A DNA stretch of 64,000 bases, taken from a phage. Positions 7,580 to 61,820 of the stretch are shown piece after piece. The stretch lies in the NCBI GenBank assembly GCA_025812035.1, contig GCA_025812035.1_4719.1, one strand, 5' to 3'. The position numbers were made by a program, and so were the translations under genes. The notes under the pieces were generated by a model. That model did no database searches, was not told the origin of the DNA, and worked only from the letters and a program-made list of their open reading frames with translations. Numbering within the stretch: position 1 is the first letter of the stretch; every line of letters starts with the position of its first letter.

Positions 7580-8785
7580 ATGTCTAATTACTACGACCAA
7601 GCTATTCAAACCATTCAGGAGAATAATGCGTCGTTAACACCCGAAGCTGTGGAGGCAGCGGGTAACGCGGCGTTATTCACCGATTCGGATTGGGCAATAG
7701 CGCGGAAGAATATTCGTACCAGTGTCGGTCAAGGGACATACGAGGACAGTATCGCCAGACGGTATCGGAATGTGTCACCTATTCCGGGTAACAGCCCGAT
7801 TCCGATTAACCGCGATCATGCCGGTATTACCTTCTTCACACGACCTAATTTACATCTTACCGACGCGAACTTAAAACGAGATCGACGTTTGTGGTCGTTA
7901 CGCACGGATAACCCTAACAGCATTCAGGCTGTTGTCCGTGACTACTTGGACCCTGTGGGTGCCAGAAAGCGAAACCATCGAGGACGTGCCATCGTCGATG
8001 AGCGCAATCCATTCATAAGTATACTGACGGATAACCTGACGGATATCAGTGGTTTCAACGACATGGAAATGCAGGTCTATCAGGGTAAACCAGGATTACG
8101 CCAAGAAACCGTTGTGATGGCCGACGGTTCGGTGGATATGTTCCAGCCATATAACCTGAACGCGACGTTCAAGAACATCATGGGTAACCCCATCATGTTC
8201 CTTCATTATATTTGGTTAATTTACATCGCAGGTGTGCATAACGGTGAACTGACACCAAGCCCTCAGGCCATCGTTGATAATGAAATGGATTACTGGACAA
8301 GATGCTATCGCATCATCCTGGATCCGACCGGGATGTATGTTCGTTATATCTTCGCACCGACCGCGATGTTTCCTGTTGGGCTACCGATTGGTAATATGGC
8401 TAACTACAGCGTTGACAAACCCTTCACGCAAGATAACGAACGTATCACTATTCCATATCAAGCGGTTGGCAACAACGCGTTCGATGAGATTCTGAAGGAT
8501 GAATTCAATCGACTTGTCCTGATGTTCTATTACGGTGAGAACGATACCCGTACGTTCCTTGAAGATGAGGAGCTGGTACCTATCTCACCCTACGAGCGTC
8601 GAATCATGTCTTATCGTGTTGATATGTATCCGTTCATTCATCCGTTAACCTCAGAGCTTCTCTGGTTCGTACCCGCTGATGATTACAACGAATTCTATCT
8701 GGACCTTGAACCGTCAGCGTTACCACCGGATACGTTCAGTCGCGATCTTGTCCGTACCACCATTCCGCAAAATTACGAGGGATAA
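7580..8785 (+). CDS. Hypothetical protein, ~401 aa
   Basis: ORF track 7547..8785 begins at TTG; ATG at 7580 (MSNYYDQ) follows AAAGGAAAG. Divergent from the 6439..7545 gene with only ~35 nt between starts. Confidence 0.6.
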   Translation: MSNYYDQAIQTIQENNASLTPEAVEAAGNAALFTDSDWAIARKNIRTSVGQGTYEDSIARRYRNVSPIPGNSPIPINRDHAGITFFTRPNLHLTDANLKRDRRLWSLRTDNPNSIQAVVRDYLDPVGARKRNHRGRAIVDERNPFISILTDNLTDISGFNDMEMQVYQGKPGLRQETVVMADGSVDMFQPYNLNATFKNIMGNPIMFLHYIWLIYIAGVHNGELTPSPQAIVDNEMDYWTRCYRIILDPTGMYVRYIFAPTAMFPVGLPIGNMANYSVDKPFTQDNERITIPYQAVGNNAFDEILKDEFNRLVLMFYYGENDTRTFLEDEELVPISPYERRIMSYRVDMYPFIHPLTSELLWFVPADDYNEFYLDLEPSALPPDTFSRDLVRTTIPQNYEG

Positions 8786-52843: not shown

Positions 52844-53290
52844 TTAATCCAAATAGTACGTGATGGATAGGTCTTTTCCATTGAATACAATATCCGTACA
52901 GTCATGGATCGTCGGTAATACCATTTTGGCGGCTACCGGAACATACGCCTGCAACTCCATGAAGTTATCCATACGGAATGCACGACGCACCATCAACGGT
53001 GTTAGTGTAAATGTTACGCTGACGTTACCGCTTGGAGTCAAGTGCATTATCGCATGCCCATGATCGCACCAACAATGGTTTTCGATCCATCCAGTGTAAA
53101 TCAGAATATTTTTATCCTCGTCGTAATAAGCAATGCCAGTCTGCTTTAAACGGCTGGTAAATCGAGAGGCTTGCTCATAGCCTGCACGCAACATTCGAGC
53201 AACCAGGCGAGTGTTGTTAGCGATTCGATTCTGTTCGTTGGTTTTTGTGGTTTTGAAAAGTTCGATACGTTCTGCTTTTGTAATTTGCAT
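52844..53290 (-). CDS. Hypothetical protein, 148 aa
   Basis: ORF; Cys/His-containing HCWCDHGH segment. Confidence 0.5.
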   Translation of the reverse strand: MQITKAERIELFKTTKTNEQNRIANNTRLVARMLRAGYEQASRFTSRLKQTGIAYYDEDKNILIYTGWIENHCWCDHGHAIMHLTPSGNVSVTFTLTPLMVRRAFRMDNFMELQAYVPVAAKMVLPTIHDCTDIVFNGKDLSITYYLD

Positions 53291-53295
53291 GATTA

Positions 53296-53709
53296 CTAAC
53301 CTAATGAATTGCGTTTAAATAATTGGATGTATGGGGTACCAAATAAAGGACTGTATGAATGTATTCGGTTCTCCTCTGATTCGTAATACTCGATAGGCCA
53401 CGATATTGGTTTAGGTAAGCGATCTAACGCTTGCAACACGGCGAGTTTAACGCTATTACTTTCGATCGGATACGGAAGTACCGTTGACGAACAGAACACA
53501 TGTGTTCGATGCAAATAAATGAGATGCTGCTGTAGCTTAGACAAACGCCTACGCTTGATTAAGAAACCAGTTACGTGGCAATCGGAGTGATCGTAGTGAT
53601 AACGTGCGCTATCGAAATAAACCTGTTCTCCTCTAACAATGAGATACTTTATCGCTTGCATGAAAGAGTAACGGCGTAATTCTCCATTAGCCAACATGAC
53701 ACGAATCAT
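53296..53709 (-). CDS. Hypothetical protein, 137 aa
   Basis: ORF; 1-nt stop/start overlap with the upstream gene. Confidence 0.5.
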   Translation of the reverse strand: MIRVMLANGELRRYSFMQAIKYLIVRGEQVYFDSARYHYDHSDCHVTGFLIKRRRLSKLQQHLIYLHRTHVFCSSTVLPYPIESNSVKLAVLQALDRLPKPISWPIEYYESEENRIHSYSPLFGTPYIQLFKRNSLG

Positions 53710-54308
53710 TACTTAGGCTCCAGAATCGGTCCGAACAACCAGAAAGTCAGACGCTGGTAGATCTGTTCGATGACTGCGGATTCTGTTTGCTCTTCTAGTG
53801 ATTTCCCTTTTTTATGCTGTATTTCTGGCGGGATGTCGCCAGTGTAAACATACCCTGTTGAGAAGTCCCATGCTAGCCGTTTACCGAAAGTGGGTAAGAA
53901 CACCTCTTCGAATCGGAACGCTTTCGAATTCCAATGAAGCAGCTGATCGGATTCAACATGTAAAGCTTTGTTACGTTTGCTTGGCATGTTTCCGAAGTAC
54001 TGAACGATAGCTGATTTCATAACCCGGTCTGCGAAGTCTTTGGCTTCGGCCTCATCGAGGGGAGGCAGGCGATGCGATAGATTCAGCTTGCGTTGTTCAA
54101 CATCAATCTTACGCATCGCTTTAATCAAATCACTAGGAACGATTTTACCCTTATGTCCTTCCTGTCGGTGTATGAAACACCCCTGGAATAACACGCAAAG
54201 TTCTTGAGGTGCGGTACTTTCCATTCGTCCGTAAGCAACGATCACCGAACGGCGACGGTCGATAACTTCGCGGATAAACCGCGGCTCAGTAATACTCACC
54301 ACTGTCAT
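53709..54308 (-). CDS. Hypothetical protein, 199 aa
   Basis: ORF; no recognisable motif. Confidence 0.5.
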   Translation of the reverse strand: MTVVSITEPRFIREVIDRRRSVIVAYGRMESTAPQELCVLFQGCFIHRQEGHKGKIVPSDLIKAMRKIDVEQRKLNLSHRLPPLDEAEAKDFADRVMKSAIVQYFGNMPSKRNKALHVESDQLLHWNSKAFRFEEVFLPTFGKRLAWDFSTGYVYTGDIPPEIQHKKGKSLEEQTESAVIEQIYQRLTFWLFGPILEPK

Positions 54309-54352
54309 TTAAAGCCCTCTTTATCTTTTTCCATTTCTCTTTACATAACCAC

Positions 54353-55039
54353 TTAAGACGTTGCCATCTTATCTTCCAGAGACTTCTTCGGTAAACCATG
54401 GATAACTCCTTTCGGGGTTAAGAACACACAGTCTGGATTCTGCGTTCGCGAACGGTCGTCTGGAGTGTTCAACGAGAACAACAACGCAGAAATACCTTTT
54501 GTCCGGTTTAACGTCGCTACGATCACGTCAAGCTGTCGTAGTGCATCCGATACCGTTCGATGAGGAACGATTCGTGACTGTTTGAAGCTGGCTAACCGCC
54601 AAGTCTCGAACAAACAACGTAGTTTAAACACGTCGGACGGAACAGCAGTAGATCCCTGTTCGATAACCTCAACCCGATCAGCTTCAGGGTAACCTACAGC
54701 AACCGCACTAAAGTGTCTTACCCCGTTATGAAAATCATCGATAGATGCTTCAGCGTATTTACATACCGTGCCAGAAACGACCATCACTTTTGCTAAACCG
54801 CGATAGTTGATCGTCAGCGGAATACGAAATACACGTAAAGCATGTTCCGGATTTAATGAGACGTCGTTAACCTTTGTTGCGGTCAGCTTACCACGCTCGT
54901 AACGTGCGGTGAACGGCAGACCGTCATAAACGGGATTGATCACAACGCCCCCTGGGGAGGCGTTAGCATTGAGATGGGTGTTAAGCCAATCGGATACTTC
55001 CTGTCTACTAGTTACGATTAACATAAAACGATCCTCCAT
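54353..55039 (-). CDS. Hypothetical protein with weak resemblance to the NAD-ligase adenylation domain but lacking the KxDG lysine, ~228 aa
   Basis: ORF track 54353..55078; start moved to MEDRF after AAAGGAAAAG. NPVYDGLPFTARYERGKL...ALRVFRIPLTI parallels [18 protein letters not shown]...[12 protein letters not shown] in the ligase of this window, with V in place of the catalytic K. Confidence 0.3.
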   Translation of the reverse strand: MEDRFMLIVTSRQEVSDWLNTHLNANASPGGVVINPVYDGLPFTARYERGKLTATKVNDVSLNPEHALRVFRIPLTINYRGLAKVMVVSGTVCKYAEASIDDFHNGVRHFSAVAVGYPEADRVEVIEQGSTAVPSDVFKLRCLFETWRLASFKQSRIVPHRTVSDALRQLDVIVATLNRTKGISALLFSLNTPDDRSRTQNPDCVFLTPKGVIHGLPKKSLEDKMATS

Positions 55040-55049
55040 TTCTTTTCCT

Positions 55050-55700
55050 TTATTCATGACGAGTATCTTCCAAATCATCCCTTTGTTTTGTAAATTCTGA
55101 TTGCTTGCGATAAACCGTCCATGAGTCGTATATGCCGTGAAAGTTCAGATGACGTGCGTTTAAGTTAACGGTGAATTCCTCCACGTTAACGAAATCTGAA
55201 CGAAGCATCAGATGAAAGTTATCGTCCCCGGTGCAGCCGCCGTATCCTTCGCCCTGATAGACCAAAAGCTGATGTGGTTGAATACGCGAGGCAACCAACG
55301 CAGCTTGTGGTTCGCAGTAAGGCGGCCACGACAGTAAAATAACATCGTACTGTGAAAGATCGATGTTCGTGTAGTCGACCTGCTGAATGTCCTCGATAAA
55401 CGGGTGGGGATGTAATTCCGTATCGTAAGCGGTAATGTCCTCAACACCAAGTTTACGCAGGACGTAAGTCAGGTAACCTGTCCCACAACCCAGGTCAGCG
55501 ACACGTCTACCGTAACAGATGTTCGCCAACTGGAGTGCTGTATCCATAGTTAACAACGACCATCCAACGTGCTGGGTATATTCTTCACGTACATCCCACT
55601 GTTGGCGGTACGTCATGGGTTCTATGATATCCGCAAGCCGTGGATACGGCAACGGCATTTTGGTTTCGCCTTGCGTGAGTAATGCAATAACGTCGTTCAT
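55050..55700 (-). CDS. Small SAM-dependent methyltransferase, (D/N/S)PPY class, 216 aa
   Basis: Motif I VADLGCGTGYLTYVL, acidic AYD, motif IV LLSWPPY ~65 aa later; too short to carry a typical DNA-MTase target-recognition domain. Confidence 0.6.
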   Translation of the reverse strand: MNDVIALLTQGETKMPLPYPRLADIIEPMTYRQQWDVREEYTQHVGWSLLTMDTALQLANICYGRRVADLGCGTGYLTYVLRKLGVEDITAYDTELHPHPFIEDIQQVDYTNIDLSQYDVILLSWPPYCEPQAALVASRIQPHQLLVYQGEGYGGCTGDDNFHLMLRSDFVNVEEFTVNLNARHLNFHGIYDSWTVYRKQSEFTKQRDDLEDTRHE

Positions 55701-55725
55701 TTTATTTCCTTTTTATCGGCATAAG

Positions 55726-55744
55726 CCCTCCCATAACGGGAGGG
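55726..55744 (-). terminator. C-rich/G-rich hairpin
   Basis: CCCTCCC-ATAAC-GGGAGGG between genes ending 55750 and starting 55700. Confidence 0.5.
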
Positions 55745-55749
55745 TACGA

Positions 55750-56178
55750 TTATTCATTTTCAATAACTTTAAGATTCGGTGTACCGAGTGTTTTCTTCAC
55801 GAGTGCCTCGGCAACGCGTTTCTCGATGAAATCGGTTGCATTGCTTCCGTCTATCGTACGCATATCACCACGGAAGTTATTGAAGACCATAAACAAGTCG
55901 CAACCATCAATGGGTATCGCAAGGTCGTAGCTGACTTGCGATGCTGTGAAGTGGACACCAACGACAACAGCGGGGACGAATTCAACGGCGGTGTTATCTC
56001 CTTCTTCTCCAGTTCCGAACGGAAGCTCAACACGATCGCCGATAGAAAATTGCGCAACATCACCGATGATACGAGTTAACGCTGCTCGTTGCATGTCGGC
56101 GATGGTTTCCTTATTTGCATCGCATGGTAAATCTAAGACTTCTTCCAGCGTGAGGAATTTACGATCGAACCAACTCAT
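55750..56178 (-). CDS. Hypothetical protein, 142 aa
   Basis: ORF; hairpin ~55726-55744 downstream. Confidence 0.5.
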   Translation of the reverse strand: MSWFDRKFLTLEEVLDLPCDANKETIADMQRAALTRIIGDVAQFSIGDRVELPFGTGEEGDNTAVEFVPAVVVGVHFTASQVSYDLAIPIDGCDLFMVFNNFRGDMRTIDGSNATDFIEKRVAEALVKKTLGTPNLKVIENE

Positions 56179-56179
56179 G

Positions 56180-56719
56180 TTAAGCTCCTTTCTGTTTTGT
56201 TTTGATTGATGATGTTAACCAGGACGATCTTACAGTGAAACCCTCAGACTCATAGAACGCCTGGGCTTCGTCGTTATCAGCACGAACATCCAGACCGATA
56301 GAATGCCCACCGCATCGGTAAGCGATGTTACGTGCTTCATTCATCAAGGCGTGGCCGATACCACGTCCACGGTATTCTGGTTTTACAACAATCGATGTAA
56401 CGTCATGAATGCCCATATGGCTCTCTGTATTCACTTCCAAGAGACCTACTGGTATCGAAGCGACGGCGTCGATCATAACGACCAACTTTGCGGTGTCCGG
56501 TAAACGCTTTTCTAATTCTAAGGCATCGTATTCACGTTTTAAGTCAGGGATATTCTCGAACATAAACGTGGTGGCCCACGCCTCTGATTCTACATCGTCG
56601 AGAATACGATACAGTTCACGAATCTGTTGTTTATGTGGATAAAGGTGTGGGTCAGCGGCCGTTGAGGCGATAACGCAATAGAACGGTCGTTCATTAATAA
56701 CTACTGTTTTGATGCTCAT
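56180..56719 (-). CDS. GNAT-family N-acetyltransferase, 179 aa
   Basis: Motif A VVKPEYRGRGIGHALMNEA and motif B AQAFYESEGF. Confidence 0.75.
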   Translation of the reverse strand: MSIKTVVINERPFYCVIASTAADPHLYPHKQQIRELYRILDDVESEAWATTFMFENIPDLKREYDALELEKRLPDTAKLVVMIDAVASIPVGLLEVNTESHMGIHDVTSIVVKPEYRGRGIGHALMNEARNIAYRCGGHSIGLDVRADNDEAQAFYESEGFTVRSSWLTSSIKTKQKGA

Positions 56720-57222
56720 GCTAAAATTCCCTCATTACCTAACAGTCGATTACAGTGACGTCGGTACATTTGACAAAGTGTTGTGATTTGATAAAGTTTG
56801 TTATAGCGTATCTCGATACGTTTTTGCACCTCTTTCCATGGAAGTTTATCGTATTGTCGGTAACGATGAATTTCATTTAACATACGAAGACGAGTAGGAT
56901 CGGTATTCTTTATTGTCGTGAGCTTCACGCGTTGGTATCCGCGCTGTAGTCCCGATTCCGAATACGTGACACCAAACTCATCCTGAATGATAGTGATGAT
57001 CTCCCGCCATCGGCGCTTCTCACCGTCACGTAAGTGCACAACCCGTGCCAGAATGTCGTTCCGATTACGATGACTCAGTTTAATATTAAGCATCGAAGCG
57101 ATCGCGCTAATTGCTCTCTGACTCCGTCCTAATGCTTCACCGATTTCTTTTGATGTCATGACGCCAGCGTTTCGGCGTATGAATGCGATTTCGGTTGTTG
57201 TGTATTCTTTACCTGCTGCCAT
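56716..57222 (-). CDS. HTH-repeat paralog 6 of 6, 168 aa (putative DNA-binding protein)
   Basis: Two helix-turn-helix-like repeats (TTTEIAFIRRNAGVMTSKEIGEALGRSQRAISAIASML); C-terminal Trp/Tyr-rich region; tandem with five paralogs. Start uncertain (67-nt overlap). Confidence 0.55.
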   Translation of the reverse strand: MAAGKEYTTTEIAFIRRNAGVMTSKEIGEALGRSQRAISAIASMLNIKLSHRNRNDILARVVHLRDGEKRRWREIITIIQDEFGVTYSESGLQRGYQRVKLTTIKNTDPTRLRMLNEIHRYRQYDKLPWKEVQKRIEIRYNKLYQITTLCQMYRRHCNRLLGNEGILA

Positions 57223-57692
57223 TTCTTACCACGTGTGTTATAATAGTAACGCTGACAAAGATGTGTGTGATGATACTCCCGCTTGAACTCAACACTGATG
57301 ATGCGAGCAACTTCTCTCCAGTTAACCCCTTCACGTCGAAGTGCTGTGATGCGGTCTGAAATTTTGCACCATTCGCCAGGATCGTATCGTCGTAGCTTAT
57401 GACGTCGTATCACAGAGGCGACGCTTGCTTTCGAGCGGCCAAGGTGATTCGCCATTTGTTTAACCGAGTATCTGTGGATATTGCTACGGATATAGGAAAG
57501 CTCATCGTCAGTATACGTGGCGTTGGTTCTCGGCGAAGGGAACAACACGTACAACTTATTCTTAATCGCGCTTTCTGTACGTTGAAATACAGTAACCAGA
57601 TCACTAATCGGTGGTCTGGGTATCTGATATGCGTAATTCTCGAGGCGTGTGAGTTCCTCATCTGTCCAGCGACGGTACTTGCGCATGGGCAA
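57156..57692 (-). CDS. HTH-repeat paralog 5 of 6, 178 aa
   Basis: RRWTDEELTRLENYAY...; second repeat YTDDELSYIRSNIHRYSVKQMANHLGRSKASVASVIRRH. Confidence 0.55.
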   Translation of the reverse strand: MPMRKYRRWTDEELTRLENYAYQIPRPPISDLVTVFQRTESAIKNKLYVLFPSPRTNATYTDDELSYIRSNIHRYSVKQMANHLGRSKASVASVIRRHKLRRYDPGEWCKISDRITALRREGVNWREVARIISVEFKREYHHTHLCQRYYYNTRGKKWQQVKNTQQPKSHSYAETLAS

Positions 57693-58161
57693 CTCCTTTG
57701 TTTTTCATGTAGTAGCACCAACGTTGATACAACGCATGTTTATTCGTTGTAATCCCAAATTTAACAACAACGTCGTACGTAATAACATTCCAATTTTGGG
57801 TAACGTTAAGTCGTTCCGCGATAAACGCGATGATCGCTTCCCGTTCTTGCTTGGTTAATGCACGACGAATTCCATTAAGCCGTATAAACTGACGAACTGA
57901 GTCATACGAACGGTTTAAATCGTACGCGATCTCACGCAACGATTTTTGTTTGATTACGGACTTAATATACGCACGTTCTTCTTCCGTATATGGTCGATGC
58001 TTTTGGCGTTGGCGTATTCCCAAACGCCCCAGACACGCGTCGATGCTGGCGTGTGTTCGTCCTGTCCGTTGTGCAATTTCATCAATCGTCAGCGACGTGT
58101 TCAAGTACAGATGTGTAACATCTTTTAACTCATCGTTACGCCACGGCCGAGGTTGTCCCAT
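57658..58161 (-). CDS. HTH-repeat paralog 4 of 6, 167 aa
   Basis: RPWRNDELKDVTHLYLNTSLTIDEIAQRTGRTHASIDACLGRLGI; YTEEERAYIKSV...SLREIAYDLNRSYDSVRQFIRLNGI; C-terminal LYQRW. Confidence 0.6.
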   Translation of the reverse strand: MGQPRPWRNDELKDVTHLYLNTSLTIDEIAQRTGRTHASIDACLGRLGIRQRQKHRPYTEEERAYIKSVIKQKSLREIAYDLNRSYDSVRQFIRLNGIRRALTKQEREAIIAFIAERLNVTQNWNVITYDVVVKFGITTNKHALYQRWCYYMKNKGVAHAQVPSLDR

Positions 58162-58639
58162 CGTGTATCCCTCTTTTCTTTCTATGATGCCACCAACGCT
58201 GATAAACAGCTTGCTTCGTCCGTGTTATGCCAAAATGCGCATTAACCCGTTCAGCAATGTGGTACCAATCCTGCGTTTCTTCTAACAATGCATCAACGAA
58301 GGCTATGAAGATCTTAGTATCATCCTCGCTTAACCGCTTGAAGCCATGGCGGTGTGCTATTGTTCGAATACTGTTTGGATCTCTGTTTAAATCGCGTGCA
58401 AGCTGTTTGTAACTTTTGTGCTTACAGTGTAGCCTGATATGTTCCAATTCATCGACGCTGAAACGTTTATGTGGTTTACGGCGTTCGACGTTTAAGTACC
58501 TCAACCTCGATTCGATTGCACCGTACGTCGTTTCCATGATTTCCGCGATTTCACGGATTTTTAATTTCGGACGACGGTCGTACAATTTCAGCAACTGTTC
58601 GTCGTACTGACGATTCCATCGTCGTATAGGTGGTTTCAC
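58136..58639 (-). CDS. HTH-repeat paralog 3 of 6, 167 aa
   Basis: RRWNRQYDEQLLKLYDRRPKLKIREIAEIMETTYGAIESRLRYL; FSVDELEHIRLHCKHKSYKQLARDLNRDPNSIRTIAHRHGF; C-terminal VYQRWW. Confidence 0.6.
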   Translation of the reverse strand: MKPPIRRWNRQYDEQLLKLYDRRPKLKIREIAEIMETTYGAIESRLRYLNVERRKPHKRFSVDELEHIRLHCKHKSYKQLARDLNRDPNSIRTIAHRHGFKRLSEDDTKIFIAFVDALLEETQDWYHIAERVNAHFGITRTKQAVYQRWWHHRKKRGIHDGTTSAVA

Positions 58640-58652
58640 AACTAAGATTCTC

Positions 58653-59120
58653 CTATTCTACGCGTCTTAATGCCTGAGTGTAGTAAAGAGCATGAACTCC
58701 GCTTAACGTGTAATGGGTGTTAAATTCGTTATTGATGATATTCCGTATTCTCTCCCAGGTTTTCTTCTCTTTTCTAAGAGTGTGTATTCGATGATAAATC
58801 ATCTCTCTACGTTGCGCCTTGCATGCAACGATGCCGTAACGGTAGCAGAGTTTAGCGATCGCGTCCACGCTACGATTGAACATTACGGCGGCTTCTTTTA
58901 CGCTGTGTGTTTTAAGATAATCGGCTAACATTACCCGTTCTTCGAAACAACAATAGCGGTGACGTGACATGAGTTTCCAGCGCTTGCGATTGCGGTTAAT
59001 TCGACCTTGAACCGAACCTTCCGTTCGGCCAAGCCGTACCGCAATCTCTTGCATCGGGATACCGTTTCGATAGAGGGTAATCAACAACGCATCTTCTTCG
59101 GGTGTCCAGTCCTTGACCAT
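58653..59120 (-). CDS. HTH-repeat paralog 2 of 6, 155 aa
   Basis: KDWTPEEDALLITLYRNGIPMQEIAVRLGRTEGSVQGRINR is a Myb/SANT-like pattern; second repeat FEERVMLADYLKTHSVKEAAVMFNRSVDAIAKLCYRYGI. Confidence 0.6.
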   Translation of the reverse strand: MVKDWTPEEDALLITLYRNGIPMQEIAVRLGRTEGSVQGRINRNRKRWKLMSRHRYCCFEERVMLADYLKTHSVKEAAVMFNRSVDAIAKLCYRYGIVACKAQRREMIYHRIHTLRKEKKTWERIRNIINNEFNTHYTLSGVHALYYTQALRRVE

Positions 59121-59132
59121 AATGCCACCCCA

Positions 59133-61820
<2,688 letters not shown>

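Follow-up and report, generated by a model that had tools for sequence, protein, structure and literature searches.

A class I methyltransferase without an NPPY motif and a nearby GNAT acetyltransferase appear to be separate accessory genes of a Goslar-like jumbo phage

We analyzed a methyltransferase (MTase) gene and a GNAT acetyltransferase gene located at positions 55050-56719 of a 64,000-nucleotide stretch of phage DNA (contig GCA_025812035.1_4719.1), which we call the window. We favor, with a probability of roughly 0.55, the reading that these genes encode independent accessory enzymes and that the MTase comes from an uncharacterised family that is not Dam-like and lacks the NPPY motif. 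Together with a small open reading frame (ORF) that lies between them, they would be three independent, co-oriented accessory genes of a nucleus-forming jumbo phage. Window bases 53000-58000 align over their full length to Escherichia phage vB_EcoM_Goslar with 91.4% DNA identity, and the window is a relative of this E. coli jumbo phage. Goslar forms a phage nucleus (PMC11895373). A first-pass annotation of the window had described the MTase and GNAT as neighbors that act together and had likened the MTase to small rRNA and protein amino-MTases. Its observations were partly confirmed and its interpretation is partly supported by the results presented here.

The region holds three ORFs, which are orthologs of Goslar gp111, gp112, and gp113. 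They and the genes around them are all on the minus strand.

55050..55700, minus strand: MTase of 216 amino acids (aa), ORF; ortholog of Goslar gp111 (89.8% aa identity)
55750..56178, minus strand: acidic ORF of 142 aa, between GNAT and MTase; ortholog of Goslar gp112
56180..56719, minus strand: GNAT N-acetyltransferase of 179 aa; ortholog of Goslar gp113 (95.5% aa identity)

The gp112-like ORF separates the two enzymes, which had been described as lying next door to one another. In the Goslar RefSeq record, gp111 is named "class I SAM-dependent methyltransferase" (SAM, S-adenosylmethionine) and gp113 is named "acetyltransferase". We compared the window with Goslar and two further Goslar-like lineages and obtained ratios of nonsynonymous to synonymous substitution rates of 0.07-0.20 for the MTase and 0.06-0.10 for GNAT. 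These low ratios (0.06-0.20 overall) indicate that both are functional genes under strong purifying selection.

Conserved motifs of the MTase

The MTase has the defining features of class I, Rossmann-fold, SAM-dependent enzymes: motif I, a seven-stranded alpha/beta fold, and an acidic residue that ends strand 2. An AlphaFold2 model (predicted local distance difference test score, 94.9) places motif I at the end of strand 1. The SAM-binding elements that are kept comprise motif I, D93 (the acidic residue of strand 2), and D109. The protein has no target-recognition domain, in agreement with the first-pass annotation. Three motifs map as follows.

55476..55496, minus strand: motif I, D69-L-G-C-G-T-G75, the SAM-binding glycine loop; conserved in homologs
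55317..55331, minus strand: equivalent of motif IV, S124-W-P-P-Y128; family consensus [ST]-W-P-x-Y
55221..55253, minus strand: family-specific loop after strand 5, G150-E-G-Y-G-G-C-T-G-D-D160; conserved columns

Motif I (DLGCGTG, residues 69-75) and the string SWPPY (residues 124-128) are both present in the 216-aa ORF, as had been reported. They are separated by 55 aa rather than the approximately 65 aa given before. We scored the conservation of individual columns in a set of 74 homologs, which was also used for scans of single members; searches of sequence collections were performed with an alignment of eight sequences. Motif I is strongly conserved, with D or E at position 69 in 74/74 homologs, G73 in 72/74, and G75 in 70/74.

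The motif IV equivalent departs from the pattern found in amino-MTases. W125 is invariant (74/74), and P126 and Y128 are conserved in 73/74 and 61/74 homologs, respectively. Position 127 varies (D22/P16/C15/N11), and the second proline is not conserved. Alignment with hhalign puts S-W-P-x-Y exactly in register with S-N-P-P-Y of HemK and S-N-P-P-F of RsmC. In this register, the invariant Trp125 stands where the catalytic Asn, Asp, or Ser is found in amino-MTases. The previous reading of the motif as "(S)PPY" was off by one position, and PPY is not a feature of the family. The motif (D/N/S)-P-P-(Y/F/W) expected after strand 4 of amino-MTases is absent, with only its first proline and its tyrosine retained.

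The loop after strand 5 is unique to the family. G150 is present in 74/74 homologs; E151, G155, and C156 are each present in 73/74; and T157 is present in 68/74, which gives the full signature G150-E151-x-x-G-G155-C156-T157-[AG]-D-D160. The loop is a 15-residue insertion relative to UbiG (hhalign), and profile matches to PDB entries end ahead of it. A second signature, H184-x-x-F187-x-G-I-H/Y191-D192-x-W194, precedes strand 7, and further signature columns are R38, D93, Q144, Y148, and F162. Aromatic and acidic side chains are abundant among the conserved residues of the three regions that follow strands 4 and 5 and precede strand 7. The protein as a whole is acidic, with an isoelectric point (pI) of 4.73 and 32 D/E residues versus 16 K/R. 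The median pI of the family is 5.22, and 76% of members fall below 6. Among E. coli enzymes used for comparison, PrmA (4.31) and PrmC (4.84) have similarly low values; RsmC, RsmD, UbiG, and TehB range from 6.0 to 6.8, and Dam reaches 8.78.

Comparison with characterised MTases

We compared the family profile with E. coli MTases using hhalign. UbiG (96.4%), RsmC (94.7%), TehB (93.9%), PrmA (91.1%), and PrmC/HemK (90.6%) gave high probabilities, and RsmD (4%) and Dam (0.5%) did not. In these sequence comparisons, O-MTases, protein MTases, and RsmC are all at a similar distance from the MTase, which is clearly neither Dam-like nor RsmD-like. The view that it does not resemble a DNA MTase was borne out: none of the 74 family members matches a DNA-MTase Pfam family, and no full-length alignment to a DNA adenine MTase was found. 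A special resemblance to small rRNA and protein amino-MTases as a class was not upheld, since RsmC and HemK score only at the generic level of UbiG and TehB. Profile searches put the protein among class I SAM-dependent MTases and outside the Dam-like, RsmD, RsmC, and HemK families.

Pfam scores are below threshold and confined to the motif I region (Methyltransf_23, 21.5 bits against a cut-off of 27), and all NCBIfam matches lie far under their cut-offs. The MTS model PF05175 reaches 19.6 bits against a 23-bit cut-off (residues 63-95); it matches 26/74 members at E<0.01, fewer than the generic Methyltransf_23. No RsmD model of NCBIfam or Pfam matches the MTase.

HemK/PrmC and RsmC share the class I fold, motif I, and the motif IV register with the MTase, and PrmC is also acidic. 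They differ from it in having a catalytic Asn instead of Trp and N-terminal substrate domains that the MTase lacks. The MTase differs from them in turn in its GEGxGGCT loop and its distinct C-terminal motif. UbiG, BchM, and TehB (Methyltransf_23/25/11) resemble the MTase in being single-domain proteins of ~200-240 aa and have the highest profile similarity. In profile searches of the PDB, UbiG matches with an E-value of 7e-6, and the BchM, UbiG, and CpaM models are each matched by ~40/74 members. However, the similarity covers only the SAM-binding half, and scores are far under equivalog cut-offs.

Seven-beta-strand protein MTases gave the best structural matches. The top Foldseek match in the PDB is METTL21A, with an E-value of 1e-6, and the next ones are METTL21B, C, and D, CypM, and PrmA. 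METTL21A-D are protein lysine MTases, and CypM is a peptide N-terminal MTase. These proteins are similar in size to the MTase, and PrmA is likewise acidic, but TM-scores are just ~0.45-0.5 and sequence identities 12-18%. Methyltransf_16 is matched by 3/74 members, and the PrmA alignment is limited to motif I (residues 62-94). Dam also uses SAM and a Rossmann fold. Unlike Dam, the MTase has no target-recognition domain and no D-P-P-Y motif, and the two proteins are opposite in charge (pI 8.8 for Dam versus 4.7).

We considered and rejected a link to DNA methylation or to mimicry of host self-methylation suggested by the PADLOC model mad2 (PDLC04134), which matches 70/74 family members with a best E-value of 1e-14. 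In the MADS defence system, mad2 is predicted to be an N6-adenine DNA MTase; the authors who described the system built their own hidden Markov models (HMMs) from HHpred alignments against the PDB (bioRxiv 10.1101/2023.03.30.534895). In a control scan, the model scored E. coli UbiG (73.4 bits), TehB (63.4), and PrmA (52.0) well above the window MTase (24.2). Since the mad2 model responds to class I MTases in general, we discarded the link. That breadth would be explained if the PADLOC model were also built from HHpred alignments of this kind. As a separate observation, the PADLOC mad2 HMM used by itself could yield false calls of MADS components.

Distribution of the MTase family

An exhaustive profile search with a limit of E<=1e-3 retrieved 5,976 cluster representatives, and 3,400 of them also pass E<=1e-10. 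Stand-alone proteins of ~190-250 aa make up nearly the whole set. The window MTase matches phrog_19090 (E 1.7e-17), to which no function is assigned. Neither Pfam nor NCBIfam has a model devoted to the family, and no closely related structure has been solved. Our literature search turned up no mention of Goslar gp111 or gp113, no expression or localisation data for either protein, and no characterisation of the family. An archaeal-virus survey lists the homolog from HGTV-1 just as "SAM-dependent methyltransferase".

Homologs are present in jumbo phages of Aeromonas, Salmonella, Xanthomonas, Klebsiella/Serratia, Pseudomonas, and Stenotrophomonas and in the haloarchaeal viruses PhiCh1, phiH, and HGTV-1. 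Pattern scans, which used different but comparably strict peptide patterns for the two collections, found 27 loci in viral contigs versus one locus in 185,579 reference genomes. Ten sampled representatives were all metagenomic; eight had no name and two were labeled "hypothetical protein". The family therefore looks mostly viral, as judged from these sequence searches. We also looked for domain fusions as a clue to function and dropped this approach when ten longer or diverse members (256-400 aa) showed no recognisable extra Pfam domain.

The GNAT acetyltransferase

GNAT belongs to its superfamily by a wide margin (PF00583, E 9.1e-15, 55.4 bits against a 20.7-bit cut-off). Motif A, R117-G-R-G-I-G122, is encoded at window positions 56354-56371, and the sequence FYESEGF occupies residues 155-161. 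With motif A intact, the protein has the sequence of a canonical N-acetyltransferase that depends on acetyl-CoA.

Assignment to a particular GNAT subfamily was not supported. The RimI model TIGR01575 scores 55.3 bits over residues 105-163, under its equivalog cut-off of 86.4, and PaiA scores 36.2 bits against a cut-off of 250. Matches in the PDB include Ard1, SpeG, PaiA, YpeA, and RimI, with E-values of 1e-5 to 1e-3. The closest characterised relatives of GNAT fall into two groups, the N-terminal acetyltransferases (RimI, Ard1, Naa20/30/50) and the polyamine acetyltransferases (SpeG, PaiA), and no match to either group reaches an equivalog cut-off. Both groups share the GNAT fold and motif A with the window protein, whose first ~65 residues are without a counterpart in most of these alignments. 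The substrate would be a protein N-terminus or lysine, or a polyamine.

The MTase and GNAT are not neighbors outside Goslar-like phages

We asked whether the MTase and GNAT form a functional module, for which conserved adjacency across divergent genomes would be expected. Their adjacency occurs only among close relatives of Goslar. An all-against-all BLAST of ORFs from 29 MTase loci found no neighbor family shared outside the Goslar group, and 28 diverse loci had no neighbor in common. In the 26 other viral loci, phmmer detected homologs of neither GNAT nor gp112 within 8 kb of the MTase. The Aeromonas jumbo phages, which are chimalliviruses, have the MTase, and GNAT gave no tblastn match in them. 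The two genes are ~190 kb apart in Klebsiella/Serratia phages of ~300 kb that carry both. Weak GNAT homologs (~25% identity) occur in different contexts in other jumbo phages, and those of phages Moabite and OBP lie in unrelated contexts. The lack of co-occurrence and synteny outside Goslar-like phages leaves the proposed MTase-GNAT pair unsupported, and from these genome comparisons the adjacency is an accident of the Goslar lineage.

This evidence also bears on the idea that the two enzymes act jointly on one host target, such as ribosomal proteins, as RimI and PrmA do. The three genes are co-oriented with short gaps, and the order GNAT-gp112-MTase is constant even in Goslar-like lineages in which GNAT is just 84% identical. 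Both enzymes plausibly act on amines, given that GNAT is nearest to RimI, Naa, and SpeG and that the MTase is acidic like PrmA. However, the constant order is seen only among close relatives, where descent by itself predicts synteny, and an unrelated ORF and a conserved hairpin lie between GNAT and the MTase. Together with the separation of the two genes in other viruses, these points make a joint module very unlikely.

The intervening gp112-like ORF is acidic (pI 4.4) and has no match in Pfam, NCBIfam, PHROG, or PADLOC. Its homologs occur only in Goslar-like phages and in the Ackermannviridae phages Bue1 and CAU_YEP3 (~30-35% identity). In Bue1 and CAU_YEP3, the gene follows genes for a dCMP deaminase and a membrane-flanked-domain protein, with a head completion gene beside it on the opposite strand. 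We rejected gp112 as a partner of GNAT, since these homologs sit in unrelated contexts.

Candidate substrates of the MTase

We used the conserved residues to consider which acceptor the MTase might use. In class I MTases, the loops equivalent to the three conserved regions form the acceptor pocket. In this family, the S-W-P-x-Y motif, the GEGxGGCT[AG]DD loop, and the H-x-x-F-x-G-I-H-D-x-W motif would build that pocket. A cationic aliphatic amine would suit such a site better than a nucleobase amine, because Trp replaces the hydrogen-bonding Asn and is joined by an acidic cluster. The most likely acceptor, stated with low confidence, would be an amine on a basic target, whether that of a lysine side chain, of an N-terminus, or of a polyamine; an exocyclic amine of a DNA base would be an unlikely one. 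Because the family occurs in both bacterial and archaeal viruses and has no conserved partner gene, its target should be universal, and a universal target would most likely belong to the translation or nucleoid machinery. We give the sequence-based proposal that the MTase acts on a protein amine roughly one chance in three.

Several observations weigh against independent enzymes of the kind we propose or against a protein amine as the acceptor. The picture of an aromatic cage and acidic pocket is drawn from sequence conservation and general class I topology. The best profile matches are to the small-molecule O-MTases UbiG and BchM. Some homologs lie near tRNA genes: the HGTV-1 homolog (7845-8489 of its locus stretch) is inside a tRNA cluster with 34 tRNA genes within 8 kb, and a tRNA gene is found within ~2.5 kb of the MTase in 6/26 viral loci and in Aeromonas phage ZPAH34. 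The homolog from Natrialba phage PhiCh1 (ORF83) directly follows two annotated DNA MTase genes. Finally, co-expression of GNAT, gp112, and the MTase is possible within the Goslar lineage, because their order is constant in all of the Goslar-like genomes examined.

The tRNA genes raise the possibility that the MTase is a tRNA or rRNA methyltransferase that tunes translation or evades tRNA-targeting defences. Several large viruses have the gene inside a tRNA array or within ~1 kb of one, including locus L011 (7929-8465), and at locus L023 (7788-8438 on a 479-kb contig) 14 tRNA genes lie upstream of it. The best single-sequence match in the PDB is METTL5 (E 0.002), limited to MTase residues 64-124. 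Cys156 (73/74), which follows strand 5 and has conserved acidic residues nearby, may recall the nucleophile of RNA MTases that form 5-methyluridine or 5-methylcytidine. These RNA MTases use a Cys nucleophile. The presence of the family in archaeal and bacterial viruses also fits a universal target. On the other hand, the MTase is strongly acidic, and no RNA-binding domain is recognisable in it or in longer members. Goslar has no tRNAs (PMC6563267), and none are present in the window. Proximity to tRNA genes may just reflect regions rich in accessory genes, as the unrelated GNAT homolog of Moabite is 1.8 kb from tRNA genes. We downgraded tRNA proximity as functional evidence for these reasons and regard an RNA substrate as possible but doubtful.

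A small-molecule substrate, such as a polyamine, a nucleotide precursor, or another metabolite, is suggested by the profile relationship to UbiG, BchM, and CpaM and by the dominance of the generic Pfam models Methyltransf_23, _25, and _11 in scans of the 74 members. A halide MTase and CcbJ are also among the top fold matches. A single domain of ~200 aa with an acidic pocket would suit a polyamine, and the neighboring GNAT is as close to the polyamine acetyltransferases SpeG and PaiA as it is to RimI. However, the small-molecule similarities stop at the SAM-binding half, no biosynthetic or metabolic neighbor is conserved in any of 28 MTase loci, and GNAT and the MTase do not co-occur outside Goslar-like phages. 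We consider this explanation unlikely.

The PhiCh1 arrangement would fit a minimal DNA MTase that shields phage DNA from restriction. Two other findings point the same way: the motif IV position aligns with NPPY-type motifs, and a PADLOC Type II MTase model matches the window protein weakly (23 bits, residues 55-129). These are opposed by the profile distance from Dam, the absence of matches to DNA-MTase Pfam families, the generic nature of the mad2 match, the invariant Trp at the (D/N/S) position of motif IV, the low pI, and the missing target-recognition domain. Only 3/74 members match any single PADLOC Type II MTase model. One report describes the nuclear shell of jumbo phages as a barrier to host defence factors (PMC9365700). 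On that description, protection by methylation would add little, because the phage nucleus already keeps such factors out. DNA protection thus appears highly improbable. The reading we prefer remains that of independent accessory enzymes, with an MTase outside the Dam-like and NPPY-containing families.

Genomic context

The order of ligase, HTH array, GNAT, gp112, and MTase genes is constant in all of the Goslar-like contigs examined, which is expected of close relatives. Three further features complete this arrangement.

55726..55744, minus strand: GC hairpin, CCCUCCC-N5-GGGAGGG in the transcript, with a 7-bp stem; identified by folding and conservation
56716..59480, minus strand: six paralogous helix-turn-helix (HTH)/Myb-like genes (context); ORFs with weak HTH Pfam matches; phrog_323
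59446-61512, minus strand: NAD-dependent DNA ligase of 688 aa, ortholog of Goslar gp121, directly upstream of the HTH array

The hairpin lies in the 49-nucleotide (nt) spacer between the gp112-like ORF and the MTase and sets the MTase apart from the block formed by the HTH, GNAT, and gp112 genes. Its folding energy is -17 kcal/mol (z = -2.9). The pattern CCCUCCC-N5-GGGAGGG occurs once in the window, with 0 occurrences expected by chance. Across five Goslar-like genomes, the stem is invariant and the loop occurs in four variants. We rejected a canonical intrinsic terminator, as no U-tract follows the hairpin and a terminator scan made no call here. The hairpin may be a terminator for a phage RNA polymerase or an element for RNA processing or stabilisation.

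The HTH array adjoins GNAT directly upstream, as the first-pass annotation stated, and its genes cluster together as paralogs. GNAT begins within the end of the array: its start codon and the stop codon of the last HTH gene share the sequence ATGA. The gp112-like ORF starts 1 nt past the GNAT stop codon and is preceded by the Shine-Dalgarno sequence AAGGAG. Genes of the array encode ~106-178 aa and are arranged in tandem with ends that overlap or nearly abut. The length of the array and the sizes of its genes differ slightly among Goslar-like lineages. The 3' end of the DNA ligase gene overlaps the first HTH/Myb-like ORF.

RefSeq starts Goslar gp111 at an ATG that gives 223 aa (MPIKGNKMN...), which is probably too far upstream. 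The corresponding ATG in the window (region 55700-55725) and in two other Goslar-like lineages does not lie in the reading frame of the gene. The ATG of the 216-aa MTase, with AAGGAAA ahead of it, is common to the window, Goslar, and the two other lineages. Downstream, a 241-aa ORF at 54353-55078 overlaps the 3' end of the MTase gene by 29 nt. Its real start is likely near 55024, at an ATG after GGAGGA, because Goslar gp110 has 223 aa. The gp110-like protein is basic (pI 9.3) and has no match in any family library.

Implications

The finding is ordinary in kind, as both enzymes were already annotated in Goslar and the pairing between them does not hold. Its remaining value is in the MTase family, which is very large, almost wholly viral or metagenomic, unmodeled in Pfam and NCBIfam, and marked by an unusual active-site signature. 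A bolder proposal, which we hold to be quite unlikely, is that the WPxY/GEGxGGCT family represents a new class of viral N-MTase that works through an aromatic and acidic pocket instead of NPPY chemistry. The target of such enzymes would lie in the universally conserved translation machinery (a ribosomal protein, elongation factor, or tRNA), and their activity would reprogram host protein synthesis. The RimI-like GNAT would be a possible second ribosome-modifying enzyme in Goslar-like phages.

The substrate of the MTase, once identified, would annotate thousands of viral genes together, and it could bring to light a strategy, common among large viruses, for modifying a component of the host. 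In nucleus-forming phages, the range of possible targets would be narrowed by learning on which side of the phage nuclear shell the MTase works.

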